From a virus (Duplodnaviria; Caudoviricetes): a DNA stretch of 64,000 nucleotides. The stretch spans positions 1-64,000 of the IMG/VR virus record IMGVR_UViG_3300038393_000457; one strand, 5' to 3'. Position numbers and translations under genes: made by a program. Positions 11,926-38,442 of the stretch are shown here, piece by piece (positions within the stretch are counted from its first letter, which is position 1; every line of letters begins with the position of its first letter). The notes under the pieces were generated by a model that ran no database searches, was not told the origin of the DNA, and saw only the letters and a list, made by a program, of their open reading frames with translations.

Positions 11926-12545
11926 TGCCAATACTCTCTCAAAGGACGATCAATAAGAGAATACGTAAAGCCTTTGATGGATTAGGAAATACAGTCATTG
12001 AACCGAAGAAATTGGCTATAGAATTAAGAAAATTATTTAAAAAGTCTAAAATTGGGTTTTCGATAATTAATGAACCAGATGCTGTGTTAAATTATATAGA
12101 AACAACAGGGTTTTATTGCCCTGATAGTCCGATCAATACGATTATCATACAATTCAATGTGAATCCTAATACAACGTTTGTCGAATTAACAGAAAGTTTG
12201 CTTGTTGATATTTCGATGACAATTCAACATGAATTGGTTCATAAAAGACAATTCCATAAACGCGGCAAGAAGTTTTTCGACTCATACGATTTCAATCCAA
12301 ACATAACTTCAACCGAAGAATTGAAGCAATATTTTGAGACACCGGATGAAGTGGATGCATATGCTCTAAATATCATACTTGGATTGACATATACCTTTCC
12401 TGGGCTAGAAGCTAAAGACATAAATAAATTCCTAATTTTTTCGGATATTTGGTATATTTACGACATTACCTCTAGGAAAACCAGGAAACGACTACTCAAA
12501 AAGGTCTATAAACTACACCAACAAGGCGTCCACTGGGACATATAA
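11925..12545 (+). CDS. HExxH (zincin-like) hypothetical protein
   Basis: IQHELVHKRQ...DEVDAYA. Confidence 0.55.
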   Translation: MPILSQRTINKRIRKAFDGLGNTVIEPKKLAIELRKLFKKSKIGFSIINEPDAVLNYIETTGFYCPDSPINTIIIQFNVNPNTTFVELTESLLVDISMTIQHELVHKRQFHKRGKKFFDSYDFNPNITSTEELKQYFETPDEVDAYALNIILGLTYTFPGLEAKDINKFLIFSDIWYIYDITSRKTRKRLLKKVYKLHQQGVHWDI

Positions 12546-12564
12546 ATAGCTCCGTAGTCACAAC

Positions 12565-13215
12565 CTACGGAGTTTTATTTTGTCTGTATATACTTTGAAT
12601 TCCATATGTTATTAACAAGTGTTCATTATTTAGTTTTCTTATTTTTGTTATACAAGACAGACTGATACCCAATTTTATAGACAATTCCTTTAGAGTCGTG
12701 ATGGTTTCTAATCCATCAGAGAATGTGATGGAATAAATTCCAGTTTTATTTTTTGATAATTTTTGACGACTTTCAATTGATTTCATAGGATTCTTATAGC
12801 CCTGAAGATATCTATTTTTCATTTTTTGGCTTAAGATGGCTCTCGTTTCGATGGAATGTTGTTTACCATAAAAATGATTTTTTATGCCAATATTAGATTC
12901 TGAATTCTTACGTCTATGTTCTTGTGTCTGTTTCTTTCCGAACATTGGGTTACCAGAACCTTTATTGCGTTCACGAGCTTTAGTCTTCCATCTCTCACTT
13001 TTTGGTGCTTTTTGGATTAATTTAATTGCTTCGGCTTGTGAAATTTGACTAGTTAATGATAACCAAGCTATTCTATCTTGTTCCTTACCATGTTTTTCAT
13101 ATAGAGCCTTATGACGCTCGGCATGTTCCTCAATTGTGATGCGTTCAATATTTGATGGAACATCAGTTCCATTCATATGTCTTGGTACAATATGATGATT
13201 ATGGTAGATTGACAT
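12565..13215 (-). CDS. HNH homing endonuclease with NUMOD3 repeats
   Basis: HHIVPRHMNGTDVPSNIERITIEEHAERH; NPMFGKKQTQEHRRK; start placed at MSIY behind aggaagga RBS. Confidence 0.9.
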   Translation of the reverse strand: MSIYHNHHIVPRHMNGTDVPSNIERITIEEHAERHKALYEKHGKEQDRIAWLSLTSQISQAEAIKLIQKAPKSERWKTKARERNKGSGNPMFGKKQTQEHRRKNSESNIGIKNHFYGKQHSIETRAILSQKMKNRYLQGYKNPMKSIESRQKLSKNKTGIYSITFSDGLETITTLKELSIKLGISLSCITKIRKLNNEHLLITYGIQSIYRQNKTP

Positions 13216-13237
13216 AGCTGTTATTCCTTCCTGGATA

Positions 13238-13270
13238 ATAGAGTTGGTGGGACTGGCATCCGCGACCAAC
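13238..13270 (-). promoter_or_regulatory. conserved structured leader motif upstream of a homing endonuclease (copy A)
   Basis: gttggt-cgc-gga-tgccag-tcc-c-accaac-tctat on the minus strand. Confidence 0.7.
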
Positions 13271-13307
13271 ATTTGATAAGTATACTTATCAAATGTAAGG
13301 AATTAAG

Positions 13308-13871
13308 ATGCCAATTATAAACGCATACCATGGCACAAATGCCATCTTCAATAAATTTTCTATGGATTCTGCTAAAATCCAGAATGATTATTACGGTGGA
13401 GGGTTTTATTTCACACCTAATCTTGAAGTTGCTAAAATCTATGCAAAGTCGGCTGTGCGCAAGACGGGTGGGAAAGAGGTAATCTATCGCGTCCAATTGA
13501 ATTTAAAGAAAACCTTTGACGTTGATAAAGAATATACTGGTGATGAATTGAAAAAATTGATTATTCCCAACTTTGAAACATTTGCAAGATCAGCTGGACT
13601 TCTTTCTCTTGGCAAAGATCGATATGCAATTATGGCAGATTTGAAGGATGGTAATACTGTTATGACGGGAGCAGAGGTTTTCAAGGGTATGTCCAATGGA
13701 ATGGTAAATACAGCCAAAGCTCGTGATCATCTAAAAAGACTTCATTATGACTCACTGCGCTATAATCCAGTACAGCATTCAGATAGGATCAAACATGAAG
13801 TATACATCGCGTATAACGCCGCAAGTGTCCGCATCATTGGACAATATGGAAGCCCCGCTCATGAACAATGA
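13308..13871 (+). CDS. ADP-ribosyltransferase-fold protein (H-G-T type)
   Basis: YHGT...YGGGFYFT....AKIYA. Confidence 0.65.
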   Translation: MPIINAYHGTNAIFNKFSMDSAKIQNDYYGGGFYFTPNLEVAKIYAKSAVRKTGGKEVIYRVQLNLKKTFDVDKEYTGDELKKLIIPNFETFARSAGLLSLGKDRYAIMADLKDGNTVMTGAEVFKGMSNGMVNTAKARDHLKRLHYDSLRYNPVQHSDRIKHEVYIAYNAASVRIIGQYGSPAHEQ

Positions 13872-14676
13872 TTTCAAGGAAGTAGTTGTATTTCTGGAAG
13901 ATAAGAAACCTAAACCAAAAAAGAAAACCCCAGAAGAAGAAGCAAAATCAAAGGGATTGACCCATCTGGGAATGGGCAGATTCGGAGACGGTAAATCGAT
14001 TAGTCATATCCTTCATAAAGGAAAATTGGTGAATGTCCATAAGCCACCAAAGGTCAAGGATGAAATGGATTATACTGGAAAGCGTCGTGTCACCGTTGAA
14101 GTCCAGAAAGAACATCCATTGGAAAGTGTTCGTTCCGATAAAGAAGTCAAGCAACTAGACAAGACGCTGAGAGATTACAACAAGGAATTTGTTGCGAAAC
14201 TGGATAATGATCACAAAGATTCTATTGGTCATCTGATATCAGGTAAACTTGATACCGCTCTATCAACATTCAAACGTGGTCAAAATCCACGAGATGGAGA
14301 AACTCAGAAGAAAATCGGGAAACTTGATGAGGTTATGAAAAAATCGAAAACCCCTATTTCAATGTCTGTCTTTAGACCTACAAATATGGATAATTTCGAG
14401 AAGGGTAAATCATATGAATATTCGGGGTATCTCCACACAACTCTTGATCCAAAAGAAATCGAAAAACACGGTAAACATTTGTTACACATTGAAATCCCGA
14501 AAGGGCATCCTGGAATATATAATGACCGTAAAGCTGGCAAAGAATACATTCTACCGCGACGTTCACAAATTCATATCGTATCTGATCCAGTTGCAATTTC
14601 AGTACCTGACTTTGATAAGAAAGGTGGGATAACATCCCCCACCCTTTTGTGGAAAGCCATAGTTGTCCATAAGTAG
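13747..14676 (+). CDS. Alt/VIP2-like ADP-ribosyltransferase domain protein (true start probably 13846 or 13861)
   Basis: VFRPT...GYLHTTLD...IEIPKG...KEYILPR. Confidence 0.65.
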   Translation: MTHCAIIQYSIQIGSNMKYTSRITPQVSASLDNMEAPLMNNDFKEVVVFLEDKKPKPKKKTPEEEAKSKGLTHLGMGRFGDGKSISHILHKGKLVNVHKPPKVKDEMDYTGKRRVTVEVQKEHPLESVRSDKEVKQLDKTLRDYNKEFVAKLDNDHKDSIGHLISGKLDTALSTFKRGQNPRDGETQKKIGKLDEVMKKSKTPISMSVFRPTNMDNFEKGKSYEYSGYLHTTLDPKEIEKHGKHLLHIEIPKGHPGIYNDRKAGKEYILPRRSQIHIVSDPVAISVPDFDKKGGITSPTLLWKAIVVHK

Positions 14677-14703
14677 TTACTCACTCATTTTAAGGATTGT
14701 CAT

Positions 14704-15330
14704 ATGCCACGTTATTCTGAAGATTTGTTGAATGAAGCTAAGAAACTTGGTCATTCTGCGGAAGATTTGAACAAATACTATAATCATGGACTTTTGTCTT
14801 GGCACACACATAAGGAATCTATTCCTGGAACTACTCCAGAACAGCTAGGAATGGCTCTTGTTGAAGAGTTTATTTTGAGCGAAAAGGCTCGCGTCAACAC
14901 AATCCGGAAGGATTTGATTGTTGAACAGGAGCAAGAAATAGTTGGTCTAAAGAAACCTTCTCAGTTGAAGAGAAAGACCACTGTTGAAGGTGATCTATAT
15001 AACGAAGAATTTCTGGATGCTCTACCAGACGATGAAGTCATTGTGGAATGGGCAACCAGTGAGAAAATCCTGTCTTCCTATGAAAAACGTTATGGAAAAG
15101 ATGCTCCCCAAAAGCTCCTAGAGGCTGCCAATCTATTTGTGAGAAAATCTGAATGGTCTCCTTCGGAAGAACCCGCTTCTGAATCCCGTCGAGGCTCAAA
15201 GCGTCATTCGTGGGATATGAAGACTTGGCATGAAAGCAAGCTTGAAGAAGCCAAGGAACAGAACATCCAGGAAGCTATAGAGTATCATTCTGAAAAGATC
15301 GAAGAATATAACAAAAAAATCAAGAAATGA
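14704..15330 (+). CDS. hypothetical protein (possible internal virion protein)
   Basis: charged 208-aa ORF in late-type block. Confidence 0.5.
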   Translation: MPRYSEDLLNEAKKLGHSAEDLNKYYNHGLLSWHTHKESIPGTTPEQLGMALVEEFILSEKARVNTIRKDLIVEQEQEIVGLKKPSQLKRKTTVEGDLYNEEFLDALPDDEVIVEWATSEKILSSYEKRYGKDAPQKLLEAANLFVRKSEWSPSEEPASESRRGSKRHSWDMKTWHESKLEEAKEQNIQEAIEYHSEKIEEYNKKIKK

Positions 15331-15833
15331 GCAAACCTGAACCAAAATGGTTCATTCGCGTAACGTCAATCGACAAAGCGAATGGTCCTACTCATAACAT
15401 GGTAACCACTCATGGCACGTACAGCCAGGCATCATTACATTTGACTAATGTGATTGGCGCTGAACGTTCTTCTGAGCCAATGAAACATTATACAAAAGGC
15501 AAGCTTCGCTTTGACATTCTACCTTTGAAAGGTTCTAAAAACAAACTCAAGAAAGACACCAGAACGGAGTCATTGATGGAAGACGACAATAAAGATGATG
15601 ACAAGGTAAAACCTCGTGATAAGAAACAGATTGTGACAGATGCGTCAAATAGAGCCAAAAAGAAGGCAGGTCTTGAAAAAGACAAGGATGTAGAAAAAGT
15701 TACTGGAAACAAGACAATGGCGGGCGGTCCAGTCAATAAGATTGATGATGACCCTGAATTGGAAAATAGTCAGTCTTCCGCAGGTGAAAAGCCGGTAATT
15801 CAACCATCTCCGAGAAATGTTGGTTCATCTTGA
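15327..15833 (+). CDS. hypothetical protein (possible internal virion protein)
   Basis: coupled ORF, highly charged C-terminus. Confidence 0.5.
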   Translation: MSKPEPKWFIRVTSIDKANGPTHNMVTTHGTYSQASLHLTNVIGAERSSEPMKHYTKGKLRFDILPLKGSKNKLKKDTRTESLMEDDNKDDDKVKPRDKKQIVTDASNRAKKKAGLEKDKDVEKVTGNKTMAGGPVNKIDDDPELENSQSSAGEKPVIQPSPRNVGSS

Positions 15834-16417
15834 TAACGACATTTCCAGCCAAAATTGGATGTTTTATTTTTACCCTTGGTTGATTGAACCATATTACTAT
15901 TATTTAAATCGTGTTCACGACAAAATTTACGTAAGTTTTGAACTATCATTACATTTCCTAGAGGGTCTGTAACAATATATGTTTTCCATTTACTCTTAGC
16001 GTTTGACAATTTTGTTTTATGTTCATCGGTCAATTTTCTACCTTTTTGGGATCGTGATATTGCTTGGTTATGTTCTTTTGTTCTGAATTTCATCGCTCGG
16101 AACACTCCATCACTGGCGGTATTTTCATTTTGATTTAGCCATTTTGGATTATTGGCTACCTTCATCCTCTTCAGAACTTTATCCTCCCATTCAAAGCATT
16201 TCCGAGGATCATTGAAAGTTTTACGTATTTGATAGGTAAAACTGTCTTTACCTGTCTTTTTTATCAATTCTTTTATTAAATTTGAAGATGTAAAATAAGT
16301 AGTCCAAAGAGTGCTAGGATGAACATCTTTACCATACCGGCAACCGTAATAACGTTGCCCAGTTGGAAGATATGTTAAGCAATAAGTAAAATATAATGGA
16401 AATTGAGACTGTGACAT
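15800..16417 (-). CDS. GIY-YIG/Seg-like homing endonuclease with NUMOD3
   Basis: YFTYCLTYLPTGQRYYGCR...YFTSS; KGRKLTDEHKTKLS. Confidence 0.85.
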   Translation of the reverse strand: MSQSQFPLYFTYCLTYLPTGQRYYGCRYGKDVHPSTLWTTYFTSSNLIKELIKKTGKDSFTYQIRKTFNDPRKCFEWEDKVLKRMKVANNPKWLNQNENTASDGVFRAMKFRTKEHNQAISRSQKGRKLTDEHKTKLSNAKSKWKTYIVTDPLGNVMIVQNLRKFCREHDLNNSNMVQSTKGKNKTSNFGWKCRYQDEPTFLGDG

Positions 16418-16442
16418 TTAGGGAAACCTTTGAATTTGTGTC

Positions 16443-16478
16443 ATAGAACCAGTGGAAGTTGCAACCTTCGCGACTGGT
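16443..16478 (-). promoter_or_regulatory. conserved structured leader motif (copy B)
   Basis: accagt-cgc-gaag-gttgcaa-cttc-c-actggt-tctat. Confidence 0.7.
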
Positions 16479-16486
16479 AACCTATA

Positions 16487-16500
16487 TATTTATATAAATA
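16487..16500. promoter_or_regulatory. palindromic pair of T4-type late promoters (TATAAATA on both strands)
   Basis: tatttatataaata between divergent genes. Confidence 0.75.
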
Positions 16501-16554
16501 CTGGCACCAATTTAATGGTATTTCCATTAATTAACAAAATTTAGGAGAAATCAA

Positions 16555-17055
16555 TTGTCAGCCTGGTCTAACACAGATACATCACAATCAAAACCAACAT
16601 GGACAAAGACTGGCAATAGGAATTTGTCCGCCGCCAATACCTATGGGGTTAGCTCACTAGAAAAGCAACAGACCGCAAATACAAGCTCATTTGCTCGCTC
16701 TGCTGGTCACCAGGGTTGGGTACGTATTCAACCACAGTATACCGATTCTTCTGGTAATATCCGCCGTAAAGCGGAAACATTGGTGGTTATGTCCACATCA
16801 ATTACCGGCAATGCCAATGTACAAATTTCTGGCACTTCAAATACAACAAATGGCAGTGTCAATGTCGTTGGAACAAATACAAAATATACAACTGAATTGA
16901 AGGTTGGTGACGTTATCAATGTTGGTCCTGGGTCTTCTGCAAGAGTTGCCACCCTGGTAAATTCCACATTCCTGACAGTTAACACCGCATTTTCGAGCAA
17001 CACAAATACTCAAAATGTCTTCGTTGGTGATTCCGTTTGGTTCCCGATCCAATGA
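16555..17055 (+). CDS. late, probably structural protein (beta-rich)
   Basis: TATAAATA promoter, aggag RBS, S/T/N/G-rich sequence. Confidence 0.55.
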   Translation: MSAWSNTDTSQSKPTWTKTGNRNLSAANTYGVSSLEKQQTANTSSFARSAGHQGWVRIQPQYTDSSGNIRRKAETLVVMSTSITGNANVQISGTSNTTNGSVNVVGTNTKYTTELKVGDVINVGPGSSARVATLVNSTFLTVNTAFSSNTNTQNVFVGDSVWFPIQ

Positions 17056-17059
17056 TTCT

Positions 17060-17782
17060 TTAATTTATTATCTTTGCTTTCCAACCTCTATGTGGGAGAA
17101 TTCGTTCTCCCCTACATAGCTCCCTTATTCGACATGTATTTAAATTGTGATTTTTACAGAATTTATCAAGCCCATCATTAACAATATAAATTTCATTATT
17201 TGGTGATATTAACTCATAAGTTTTACATTGTCTTAGACGAAATTCTTCATTGTATAGCGCTTTACGTCTTTTTTCATTCCAAGGTATACCTTTTTTAATT
17301 TTTGATTGATAATCACACCATTCCTTTGTTTGTTTAAATCTCTTACCATACATGGGATTACCCTCACCGGAATATTTTATTGAGGCGGCTTGTTTTTGTT
17401 TTTCGGAATGTTTTCTACCATAATTTGGACTATTTTGACCTGTTATGGATATAACAAATTTAGAACGTAGATTTTGATAAAGACGGCTATTTTTTACTTG
17501 TTTCGTCCTTGTACACATGAACCAAAAAGCCTGTAACATTTTATTTTTATGGTTGTTGTTAATATAACAACATTTGGTAAGAATTAGGTGTGCTAGATAA
17601 TGTTCACGAAATGTAAGATTGACAATATTTTGATCATCGTCGGTACCACCCATTGATTTTGGAATAATATGATGAGCTTCAGTAATTCCTTTTAATTTCG
17701 GACGACCGATGGCTCTTGTAATGATTTTGTTGTACCTATCCATATATTTGGAAGGTATAAATATATCTGATTGCTGTAACAT
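17060..17782 (-). CDS. HNH homing endonuclease with NUMOD3
   Basis: EAHHIIPKSMGGTDDDQNIVNLTFREHYLAH. Confidence 0.9.
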   Translation of the reverse strand: MLQQSDIFIPSKYMDRYNKIITRAIGRPKLKGITEAHHIIPKSMGGTDDDQNIVNLTFREHYLAHLILTKCCYINNNHKNKMLQAFWFMCTRTKQVKNSRLYQNLRSKFVISITGQNSPNYGRKHSEKQKQAASIKYSGEGNPMYGKRFKQTKEWCDYQSKIKKGIPWNEKRRKALYNEEFRLRQCKTYELISPNNEIYIVNDGLDKFCKNHNLNTCRIRELCRGERILPHRGWKAKIIN

Positions 17783-17796
17783 TTTAACCCTTTGTT

Positions 17797-17830
17797 ATAG
17801 AGTTGGTGGGGAACCGACTCCGCGACCAAC
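17797..17830 (-). promoter_or_regulatory. conserved structured leader motif (copy C), downstream of ACTAAATA
   Basis: gttggt-cgc-gga-gtcggt-tcc-cc-accaac-tctat. Confidence 0.7.
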
Positions 17831-17859
17831 ATCATTTATTTAGTAAAGGTTAAACCCTA

Positions 17860-18810
17860 ATGAAGTCATTTAAATCATATCTGGCAGAAAACTACGACGT
17901 TCCAGTTACTCATTTTACGGCAGATGGTGCTCACGAGAGTCTTGCTAGCCAGAATTTGTCTAACAAGGAAACACGTGACGAAATCAACGTCCAGTTGTTG
18001 CGTGCAACCGCCGGACAGTTCACAAATCCATATCTTTCTTTGATGAAGGTTGCGAAGCTTCTTGCTGTTTACGGTGTATTGCTTCCAAGACCTTATTTCC
18101 CTGCTGTAGATGGTGGTGAAATGATCTGGGTTATCAACCCAGATGGTCAAATGCACGACTATAATACGTCTGTTCCTGCAAGTGAAAAGGATGTTCCAAA
18201 GTGGTTCCTATACTTCGAATATGGTGTAGACACTGACGGGGCTTATGTCTGCTATTCTGAAATCTGTGACATGGATGGATTGGATGATCTTCTAGAAGAA
18301 GAATTGGATGAAGAAAATCTAGACGAATCTCTTCCTAAAAATGCTTCAGCCGGCGATTATGTAAAGGATTTTGTTCATTCTAAGAATTCCAAATTTGATG
18401 GAGATTCCAAGAAAGAACGTATTCGCAGAGCACTCGGGGCTTATTATAGTAAAAAAAATGAGGAATTGGATACAGAAAAAAAAAGTCTGAATGAAAATCT
18501 TTTAACTGAAGATAACGAATTACATTTTTCTTTGAAAGGTTTTGGTTTCAAACACAAAAATAAACATGGCGGATATCATTCATTCAATCATGATAAGGGT
18601 GTAAGTCACGAAGACCTTCATAAACATTTGGTAAACAATGGTTATCGTTTAACTCGTTCAGACAGGTCTATGGGTGATAGACATGATGAAAAAACACATG
18701 TTTATACCAAAACTACACCATATGAAGAACACGGTGTTTCAATATCTGGTCATAAACATGGTGAGAAGATTAGAAATATTCAATCCAGTCACCAGGTTTC
18801 AAGAGATTAA
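17860..18810 (+). CDS. T4-like hypothetical protein (possible internal virion protein)
   Basis: MKSFKSYLAE start; DFVHSKNSKFDGDSKKERIRRALGAYY motif. Confidence 0.55.
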   Translation: MKSFKSYLAENYDVPVTHFTADGAHESLASQNLSNKETRDEINVQLLRATAGQFTNPYLSLMKVAKLLAVYGVLLPRPYFPAVDGGEMIWVINPDGQMHDYNTSVPASEKDVPKWFLYFEYGVDTDGAYVCYSEICDMDGLDDLLEEELDEENLDESLPKNASAGDYVKDFVHSKNSKFDGDSKKERIRRALGAYYSKKNEELDTEKKSLNENLLTEDNELHFSLKGFGFKHKNKHGGYHSFNHDKGVSHEDLHKHLVNNGYRLTRSDRSMGDRHDEKTHVYTKTTPYEEHGVSISGHKHGEKIRNIQSSHQVSRD

Positions 18811-35539: not shown

Positions 35540-35617
35540 GGTGCTGTATCCCTCGACGCTACGAACGTCGTGAAAGGTAATTGGATCATGCAGGTTCGAC
35601 CCCTGTCAGCATCTCCA
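35540..35617 (+). tRNA. D-armless tRNA-Arg(ACG)-like RNA
   Basis: ggtgctg/cagcatc TCCA; cgacg-ctacgaa-cgtcg; only 7 nt between acceptor and anticodon stems. Confidence 0.7.
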
Positions 35618-36194
35618 TTATTCTATTAGGTTCTCCATATAGAAGCTTAATAGATTTTTTTACTTGATCTAATTTCTCCTGTTGTTTGATGACAACGATT
35701 GGATTCTTTGGATCAAGAAATATGTTAAGATTAGGAAGATAGAAATCTGGAAAGTATTTGTGTTCTTTCCCATTTTTATCGATCCAAGGAATTGATGTTT
35801 TTGGTTGTTCCCAAATAATATTGGCTTCATCAAGTAATTGGGCCATTTTTACTTCCCAACCAGAATCAAAGATAAAGTTTTTGTAAATTTGACGTTTTAT
35901 ACCGGAAGCATTCTTTCTTTTGACCGCGATGAAACATTGGTCAGAACAAGTTGTTCCAATTTTCTTTTGTGACGCAAAATATTTTTGGCATACAGAACAT
36001 TGTCGAAAATATACCTTGGAATTGGGTCCACAAACATGTCTCTTGCTGAAGAAGCCTCTTTTACCAATTGTTGTTGATTTTATCCTTGTATAATTACGAC
36101 CGCGTTTAAGGTTATTGTATGTTGCGGAACAAGATGAACCACAGAATTTTCTTTTTAATGGTATAAGTAAGTTGCAATTTAAACAATTATGCAT
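35586..36194 (-). CDS. PD-(D/E)XK-type homing endonuclease with N-terminal Zn-binding motifs
   Basis: CxxC repeats; DSGWE...KYFPDFYLP..NIFLDPKN. Confidence 0.8.
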   Translation of the reverse strand: MHNCLNCNLLIPLKRKFCGSSCSATYNNLKRGRNYTRIKSTTIGKRGFFSKRHVCGPNSKVYFRQCSVCQKYFASQKKIGTTCSDQCFIAVKRKNASGIKRQIYKNFIFDSGWEVKMAQLLDEANIIWEQPKTSIPWIDKNGKEHKYFPDFYLPNLNIFLDPKNPIVVIKQQEKLDQVKKSIKLLYGEPNRIMEMLTGVEPA

Positions 36195-37656: not shown

Positions 37657-37729
37657 ACACCAGTGTTCCGACAGGTAAGGGAGACGTCTTTTAAACGTCT
37701 ATATGTGGGTTCAAATCCCACCTGGTGTA
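37657..37729 (+). tRNA. trnK: tRNA-Lys(TTT) within a 21-bp inverted repeat, no CCA
   Basis: gacgt-cttttaa-acgtc. Confidence 0.8.
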
Positions 37730-38442
37730 CTAAGAAGAAATTTTTTCTTTACAGTATTATAATTAGCACCTCTTGGACTTTTTCCTTGTGCAATAAGATA
37801 TTGACGAATAGAAGGATATCCTTCTATTTCAATTTTCTTGGTGTTCTTTCTACGTCTTATATTTCTACCTCTCCATGTATCTGTTTGTGAATGACAATTT
37901 GGGCATAGAAATTCCACATTTTCTCTTGTGTTATTATGATGATTACCATCCTTATGTTCAAATTCCAATGTAATTGGTTTACCTAACCAAGTGTCATTAT
38001 GACATTTATTGCACCTATTTTCTTGATCTCTTAATACCTGTTCTTTAAGTTCTTTGACATATGATAATGGATTTCTTTCTCGTCTTTTTGCATGTTCTAT
38101 TTTCCATTTAAGACCATCCATTAATCTTTTATGTTCCATTGAACAAAATTTCTTTTGTTTTCTGCTAAGTATATTATAACAACCATCAATTCCACAATAA
38201 CAATTTTTATTATCTAAATCCTTTAGACGTTGGAAATTGTTGACTCTGGTGGAACAACTATTGCAGCAATATTTTGGATTTCTTGTGTTTTTGTTGCATT
38301 CTTGGTTCATACATTGATGTGGTTGTCTCATTATTTGACTTTCATTTTTTGTTATGTTAGTATTTACCATACTAAATAATTGATCAAAAGTCAATTGGAT
38401 ATTATAAATAGGATTTCCGGCACGATGTAATGGTGCCGCCAA
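37711..38442 (-). CDS. HNH homing endonuclease with Zn motifs (true start probably internal)
   Basis: RCNKC..W.GKPITLEFEHKDGNHHNNTRENVEFLCPNCHSQT. Confidence 0.9.
   Translation of the reverse strand: MAAPLHRAGNPIYNIQLTFDQLFSMVNTNITKNESQIMRQPHQCMNQECNKNTRNPKYCCNSCSTRVNNFQRLKDLDNKNCYCGIDGCYNILSRKQKKFCSMEHKRLMDGLKWKIEHAKRRERNPLSYVKELKEQVLRDQENRCNKCHNDTWLGKPITLEFEHKDGNHHNNTRENVEFLCPNCHSQTDTWRGRNIRRRKNTKKIEIEGYPSIRQYLIAQGKSPRGANYNTVKKKFLLSTPGGI

Follow-up and report, generated by a model that had tools for sequence, protein, structure and literature searches.

Control of free-standing homing endonucleases has so far been worked out gene by gene, and only in T4 and Aeh1. The octamer TATAAATA is established as a late promoter of T4 and the cyanomyoviruses. 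In the T-even phages and Aeh1, the genes for I-TevI, I-TevII, I-TevIII, segB and mobE carry a late promoter inside a hairpin that sequesters the ribosome binding site (RBS), and late transcripts lack the masking arm (PMC2988022). The text of Dassa et al. (2009; PMC2677866) describes "fractured genes" in the Global Ocean Sampling (GOS) data, in which TATAAATA hairpins with two MEME motifs precede free-standing GIY-YIG and Vsr-like genes. A third case, from cyanophage S-PM2, is the ~225-nt antisense RNA CfrI, which lies opposite psbA and a homing endonuclease gene (Millard et al., 2010, summarised in PMC2984593). Here we analyse a DNA stretch of 64,000 nucleotides (the window), positions 1 to 64,000 of the IMG/VR virus record IMGVR_UViG_3300038393_000457. 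Its genes run on the plus strand, and three homing endonuclease genes are interspersed on the minus strand, each headed by one copy of a two-hairpin cassette.

Copies of the cassette were collected by pattern scans of IMG/VR, one metagenome scan, the covariance model R1 and an R1 search of the fetched loci. All family statistics rest on the distinct copies recovered from public viral and metagenome contigs, which number at least 62. Nearly all matches of the metagenome pattern scan arose by chance; it yielded at least four new members. Of 41 downstream open reading frames (ORFs) tested, 20 belong to phrog_314 and 19 to phrog_655, both annotated "homing endonuclease"; NUMOD3 was detected in 11 and HNH models in more than 10. 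The cassette heads several unrelated ORF types (HNH, GIY-YIG-like and others) and thus crosses the HNH/GIY-YIG divide in the Pfam assignments, as an earlier note made from the window sequence had stated. A Pfam tally of 99 flanking ORFs returned genes of the T4 core, namely gp23, gp41, gp44, gp15 and NrdA. The cassette is therefore a widespread portable module associated with homing endonuclease genes of uncultured T4-like phages. The same note had suspected such a module from three copies, and the covariance model built from the family indeed found relatives in front of homing endonuclease ORFs in other viral and metagenome contigs.

The note had also failed to recognise the element as a named motif, and this agrees with Rfam 15, in which no family matched over the cassettes on either strand of positions 12500-18000, even at E ≤ 10; within the window the Rfam gathering score was reached by tRNAs only. 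Model R1 found no copy in the cultured T4-like phages S-SRM01, S-SKS1, phiM12, S-H34 and S-B05, which include Synechococcus phages and carry nucleases resembling the downstream ORFs. In the literature we found no description of the element beyond the brief account of Dassa et al. (2009; PMC2677866), and relative to this literature the cassette is an undescribed variant of endonuclease control.

The cassette is ~80–95 bp long and forms the beginning of free-standing homing endonuclease genes. Read along the gene strand, it opens with a late-promoter box, (N)ATAAATA, followed after 3–5 nt by hairpin 1; a sense box with at least seven of eight matches to TATAAATA is present 2–8 nt, mostly 3–5 nt, upstream of hairpin 1 in 46 of the 62 copies. 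Hairpin 1 consists of N4-GU, a bulged C, a G, a second bulged C, a stem of 3–5 bp (3–4 bp in the window copies), a loop of 6–8 nt and C-C-AC-N4'. The earlier note took the CGC and C(C) as an internal loop; the bases are as it read them, but they form G-C pairs parted by two single bulged C residues. The pairing of the middle G with the C that precedes AC follows from locus L076:3132, in which a change of CGC to CAC is compensated by a change of C to T; compensatory changes occur even at near-invariant pairs. A single U links hairpin 1 to hairpin 2, and this linker and the bulges are conserved. Hairpin 2 is built from CUAU-N3-4, a loop holding GGAG, and N3-4-ACAG, and is followed by C and by AUG-NNU-AUU-UAU. 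The Shine-Dalgarno (SD) sequence spans the loop and the 3′ arm of this hairpin, which also includes the AUG in window copies 2 and 3. Read in reverse complement, the final codons form a second late-promoter box, which points back into the hairpins. The element as originally outlined, hairpin 1 with UCUAU, is thus correct as far as it goes, but it continues into a second covarying hairpin, CUAU..ACAG, that holds the SD.

The covariation claimed for the outer and inner stems was found as described. In 51 copies, 98% of the pair cells were paired compared to 79% after shuffling, with covariation scores of 0.50 and 0.14, respectively. At pairs 5–8 of hairpin 2, 195 of 248 cells are Watson-Crick pairs versus 86 in the shuffled set; hairpin 2 had no influence on the selection of members except through its four conserved foot pairs.

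Selection on a fold in the mRNA should tolerate G.U and purge A.C, and the opposite was observed, which speaks against a fold on the gene strand. On the gene strand, all 62 copies have an A.C at the third pair of hairpin 2, which corresponds to G.U on the opposite strand. Among the 620 cells of hairpin 1 we counted 609 Watson-Crick pairs, 7 A.C and no G.U, and among the 434 cells of hairpin 2 there are 84 A.C, 62 of them at the invariant pair. Overall, 78.6% of the hairpin 2 cells are paired on the gene strand versus 97.2% on the opposite strand. In members picked regardless of the outer stem, this stem contains 8 A.C, 3 A.A and no G.U (binomial p ~0.008). The minimum free energy is lower on the antisense strand in 60 of 62 copies, with means of −18.5 versus −13.6 kcal/mol and a difference of 4.9. 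For window copies 1, 2 and 3 the folding z-scores are −1.3, −2.7 and −3.1 on the plus strand and −0.6, −0.6 and +0.2 on the minus strand. Based on the wobble and mismatch asymmetry and on the folding energy, the selected fold is probably located on the strand opposite the nuclease gene and not in the leader of the nuclease mRNA. The cis-acting leader fold of the earlier note is therefore probably not what is selected; in addition, the second late box faces the hairpins from the ORF.

The gene strand has nevertheless to be considered, since hairpin 1 is nearly all Watson-Crick and can fold on either strand. The fold could act in the nuclease mRNA, where the 5′ hairpin would make the late transcript more stable or serve as a binding site for a common factor of phage or host, and hairpin 2 would partly mask SD and AUG, keeping translation low. 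The position of the sense box 3–5 nt before hairpin 1 would let a late transcript start at its foot, the SD is part of hairpin 2 (loop and 3′ arm), the hairpins are retained in copies without a facing box, and RBS-masking hairpins are the known T-even mode of control for such genes (PMC2988022). Hairpin 2 is however weak on the gene strand (mean −2.5 versus −6.3 kcal/mol on the opposite strand), and besides the invariant A.C at its third pair it contains 22 more A.C versus 3 G.U, which makes this explanation unlikely.

On the opposite strand, 35 of the 62 copies have an octamer with at least seven of eight matches to TATAAATA at a distance of 4–10 nt from the hairpin 2 foot. The density of facing octamers at these spacers is 0.082 per position compared to 0.0007 inside ORFs, a more than 100-fold difference, and in the family the spacer peaks at 6–8. 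The box is encoded by nuclease codons 2–4 (ATG-NNT-ATT-TAT), and the M-x-I-Y head is common to HNH, several GIY-YIG-like and other ORF types. Of the 24 M-x-I-Y heads, 23 have T as the third base of codon 2 and 19 encode Ile-Tyr by ATT TAT, indicating a constraint on the nucleotides and not on the peptide alone.

The pattern derived from the copies matched the window three times and had no match in 100 shuffles; the three copies are located and read as the earlier note described them. Regular-expression and covariance-model searches found no further copy in the whole 83.8-kb record. Copy 1 (13218-13270, minus strand; seen in the sequence and by pattern match, R1 59 bits, E 1e-10) comprises hairpin 1 at 13243-13270, UCUAU at 13238-13242 and hairpin 2 with the SD at 13218-13241. 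It heads HNH-NUMOD3 homing endonuclease gene 1 (12565-13215, minus strand; Pfam NUMOD3, phrog_655), the protein of which begins MSIYHNHH. Copy 2 (16409-16478, minus strand; pattern match, R1 48.9 bits) has hairpin 1 at 16448-16478, UCUAU at 16443-16447 and hairpin 2 at 16409-16446, with the AUG (16415-16417) within the 3′ arm of the latter, and precedes a SegE-like GIY-YIG homing endonuclease gene (15800-16417, minus strand; Pfam SegE_GIY-YIG, phrog_314). Copy 3 (17774-17830, minus strand; pattern match, R1 45.5 bits) has hairpin 1 at 17802-17830, UCUAU at 17797-17801 and hairpin 2 at 17774-17800 with the AUG (17780-17782) inside; the gene behind it is HNH-NUMOD3 homing endonuclease gene 2 (17060-17782, minus strand; Pfam HNH and NUMOD3, phrog_655, E 1.5e-43). 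Compared to the relative L198, copy 3 has apparently lost the canonical ATG and its start has shifted into hairpin 2. Over 118 amino acids the two HNH proteins share 33% identity, and both belong to phrog_655; they are thus homologous, and the genes are not the three unrelated endonucleases they had been taken for.

An octamer had been reported a few nucleotides upstream of each copy. It is present at all three, at spacers of 12, 8 and 6 nt from hairpin 1, but only copy 2 has a perfect TATAAATA (16487-16494, minus strand), which would serve the GIY-YIG gene. The sense octamers of copy 1 (GATAAGTA, 13283-13290, minus strand) and copy 3 (ACTAAATA, 17837-17844, minus strand) are late-promoter-like with six of eight matches, the former being weak. 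Copy 3 also has a perfect antisense TATAAATA on the plus strand at 17756-17763, in codons 7–9 of HNH gene 2; the CUGU foot of hairpin 2 follows after 10 nt. This box is a candidate promoter for an antisense RNA that would run from 17770 to ~17845 or on into gene 17860. The full convergent arrangement is found in the window at copy 3 only. The state of control probably differs among the three copies, since copy 3 has the perfect antisense box, copy 2 a perfect sense and a doubtful antisense box, and at copy 1 both are weak.

At copies 1 and 2, late-promoter-like boxes are arranged back-to-back between the nuclease gene and its divergent neighbour. A 26-bp perfect palindrome (13270-13295) presents GATAAGTA on both strands at copy 1, and the plus-strand octamer faces gene 13308. 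At copy 2 a perfect TATAAATA on the plus strand (16493-16500) overlaps the sense TATAAATA and faces gene 16555-17055.

The best reading of these sequence data, to which we assign a probability of roughly 0.5, is that a structured antisense RNA restrains the nuclease together with promoter interference. In this mechanism, two facing late promoters would bracket the two hairpins, and late in infection the facing box would fire. The predicted RNA of ~55–70 nt would have its 5′ end at the foot of hairpin 2′ (the opposite-strand form of hairpin 2) and would end past hairpin 1′, where the complement of the sense box is rich in U. It would be fully complementary to the 5′ untranslated region, SD and AUG of the nuclease mRNA, and together with head-on promoter interference it would keep the nuclease low or delayed.

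We do not place the probability higher because the 3′ end is not a textbook terminator and the public RNA contigs stop outside the cassette. Hairpin 1′ is followed by an A and 2–4 nt and then by UAUUUAUA, with ~6 U in 12 nt, which is not a canonical terminator, and a simple terminator scan did not flag the cassette hairpins. The matching RNA contigs, from two metatranscriptome runs, miss the cassette and give neither the strand nor the ends of the RNA. Several further points weigh against an antisense RNA. The ORF-side antisense box of copy 2 is only AATAAGTA (six of eight matches, spacer 20), and copy 1 has no ORF-side antisense octamer, its I-Y codons being ATC TAC. Three copies (L136:4527-4580, L180:12441-12494 and L212:1156-1214), which are the highest-scoring among those recovered, keep both hairpins while both boxes are missing at their usual place; a terminator-like hairpin downstream of gp23 precedes the cassette there in place of the sense late box, and the nearest antisense box is 25–29 nt away. 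The role of the hairpins may thus not need a facing promoter. Finally, a late-promoter function of TATAAATA in these uncultured phages is presumed by analogy.

A fold on the opposite strand could also be part of an RNA that belongs to the host gene next door. Such an RNA, made by read-through or from the facing box, would carry a protective or processing leader for the next host cistron and thereby limit the harm that the insertion does. Divergent genes beyond the cassette, with starts 20–80 nt away, were counted for 28 copies; these include window copies 1, 2 and 3, at 38, 77 and 30 nt. Moreover, at L015, L145 and L117 the cassette lies between the halves of a fractured gp41 gene, the downstream half of which needs that strand, and the seg and mob genes of T4 hold outward promoters for host genes (PMC2988022). 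A late promoter would however not serve an early replication gene such as gp41, and the neighbours of window copies 1 and 2 have a late-like box of their own. In 17 copies, a long co-oriented gene ends 6–20 nt before the cassette, and there RNA from the facing box would merely be antisense to the 3′ end of that gene, which speaks against a general role of this kind. We therefore consider a role for the host gene improbable.

The nearly pure Watson-Crick pairing of hairpin 1 would also fit an element that works at the DNA level, without a functional RNA fold: by promoter interference alone, as a protein-bound or extruded structure, or as a recombination handle that swaps ORF heads. Several unrelated ORF types carry the cassette, and window copies 1 and 3 have identical stems and different loops, which suggests exchange between copies. 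On the other hand, the stem sequence varies freely while pairing is kept, which argues against a sequence-specific DNA-binding site, the bulges and the 1-nt linker are conserved, and there is no reason for a duplex or cruciform to favour A.C on one strand. Taken together, this makes a DNA-level element very unlikely, and the antisense RNA remains the preferred reading.

Two other candidates were rejected. A guide RNA or ribozyme was dropped because there is no Rfam ribozyme match, no conserved core besides the helices and, in the neighbourhood, no RNA-guided nuclease; nothing suggests the guide-like role that had been considered in the earlier note. A tRNA-like nature of hairpin 1 was dropped on the same grounds.

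Some copies are orphans, with no nuclease ORF behind them (L129:8585-8643, L141, L204, L071:1672-1734, L210:4266-4327 and L146:4341-4397). One type of these is located in front of a T4 neck-protein gene, and two are GC-rich and lack both promoter boxes. At L015:5290-7332, L145:1919-2545 and L117:4770-5960, a reverse-oriented HNH gene with its cassette splits the gp41 helicase gene. The upstream half closes with a 16-residue tail starting CVHPDTK, and the downstream half opens with ~130 extra residues, which end in ..SHN and precede T-GVGK (Walker A). From their sequence, the two halves look like a natural intein that is atypically split and has a very short N part. It was seen by direct comparison with gp41; the Pfam tally of the flanking ORFs did not show it.

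The source record has a CheckV completeness of 47%. The phage is a distant T4-like one: its gp43-type DNA polymerase is 42–44% identical to cyanomyovirus polymerases, and it encodes UvsX, a gp41-like helicase and NrdA. The Rfam scan found 21 tRNA genes in the window, and positions 30900-54400 hold a big tRNA gene cluster with small ORFs and endonuclease genes in between. At least two further HNH-type genes of the tRNA region (35586-36194 and 37711-38442, minus strand) have no cassette copy according to the R1 search; one has ACTAAATA and a plain leader, the other a plus-strand TATAAATA (38403-38410) within its 5′ end. A perfect plus-strand TATAAATA adjoins a bidirectional terminator-like hairpin at the 3′ end of HNH gene 1 (12541-12574). 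Between the first two nuclease genes (13308-14676) two ADP-ribosyltransferase-like genes are located (ART-PolyVal/DUF3990 and ADPrib_exo_Tox). Megablast of the region against GenBank phages gave no match, and a protein search among viral contigs found no relatives of HNH gene 2. Two rhizosphere metatranscriptome runs contain contigs at least 99% identical to window positions 17156-17487 and 17855-17994, a weak hint that the phage may live in soil or the rhizosphere.

A single portable cassette on dozens to hundreds of unrelated nuclease genes would make control itself mobile and modular, and this control would unite late promoters that face each other and a fold under selection on the antisense strand. 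We tentatively suggest, at somewhat less than even odds, that the cassette might represent the first dedicated small-RNA family for homing endonuclease control: a late two-hairpin antisense RNA with its promoter in the first four codons (M-x-I-Y), grafted as a unit to nuclease domains that are unrelated, throughout a large clade of uncultured T4-like phages. If true, promoter, leader, antisense gene and ORF start would move as one unit. The cassette would add an RNA family absent from Rfam and a sequence tag for such genes in metagenomes, and it lends itself to a simple test, in lytic phages, of control by antisense RNA and promoter interference. It is moreover a marker of insertion sites, among which are naturally split genes and split inteins of use to protein engineers.

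In type I toxin-antitoxin systems and in the RNA-IN/RNA-OUT pair of IS10, facing promoters produce a short structured antisense RNA that covers the SD and AUG of a dangerous or selfish gene. The cassette likewise has facing promoters around the 5′ untranslated region and the start codon, the antisense RNA being a prediction here. Sequence and fold are not similar to these systems. Both cassette promoters are phage late promoters, so that control would take place within one temporal class, and the antisense promoter is located in the first codons and moves with them between unrelated ORFs. PeSL (promoter early stem-loop) cassettes of T4-type phages, attributed to Arbiol et al. 2010, are said to combine an early promoter with a terminator-like stem-loop and to occur in hyperplastic regions. 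They are short portable promoter and stem-loop cassettes repeated in T4-like genomes as well, but they have early promoters, are not tied to nuclease genes and are unrelated in sequence.

CfrI shares with the cassette an antisense RNA, here a predicted one, that is tied to a homing endonuclease gene of a T4-like phage. It differs in being long, in lying at the other end of the gene and in linking the nuclease to psbA, and neither a conserved two-hairpin fold nor a portable cassette is reported for it (PMC2984593). The loci of Dassa et al. (PMC2677866), compared here by text description and context, are similar in their environmental T4-like origin, free-standing nucleases of different families, a late box and a conserved hairpin with two complementary motifs; the context of the fractured gp41 loci L015, L145 and L117, with their putative split intein and cassette, matches them. 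In the text of that paper, the loci are read as a translational hairpin on the gene strand, and a second hairpin, a facing promoter, a strand asymmetry or an RNA family is not mentioned.

Like the T-even and Aeh1 genes, the cassette combines a late promoter with an RNA hairpin in the SD region directly before the nuclease gene, and the purpose of the T-even and Aeh1 hairpins is to keep a potentially harmful nuclease low or late (PMC2988022). In contrast to these genes, both hairpins of the cassette are located downstream of the sense box and hence would be part of any late transcript, the cassette folds better on the opposite strand and it has a second, facing box. Whereas the T-even and Aeh1 hairpins are gene-specific, sequence and structure of the cassette are conserved across many genes and phages.

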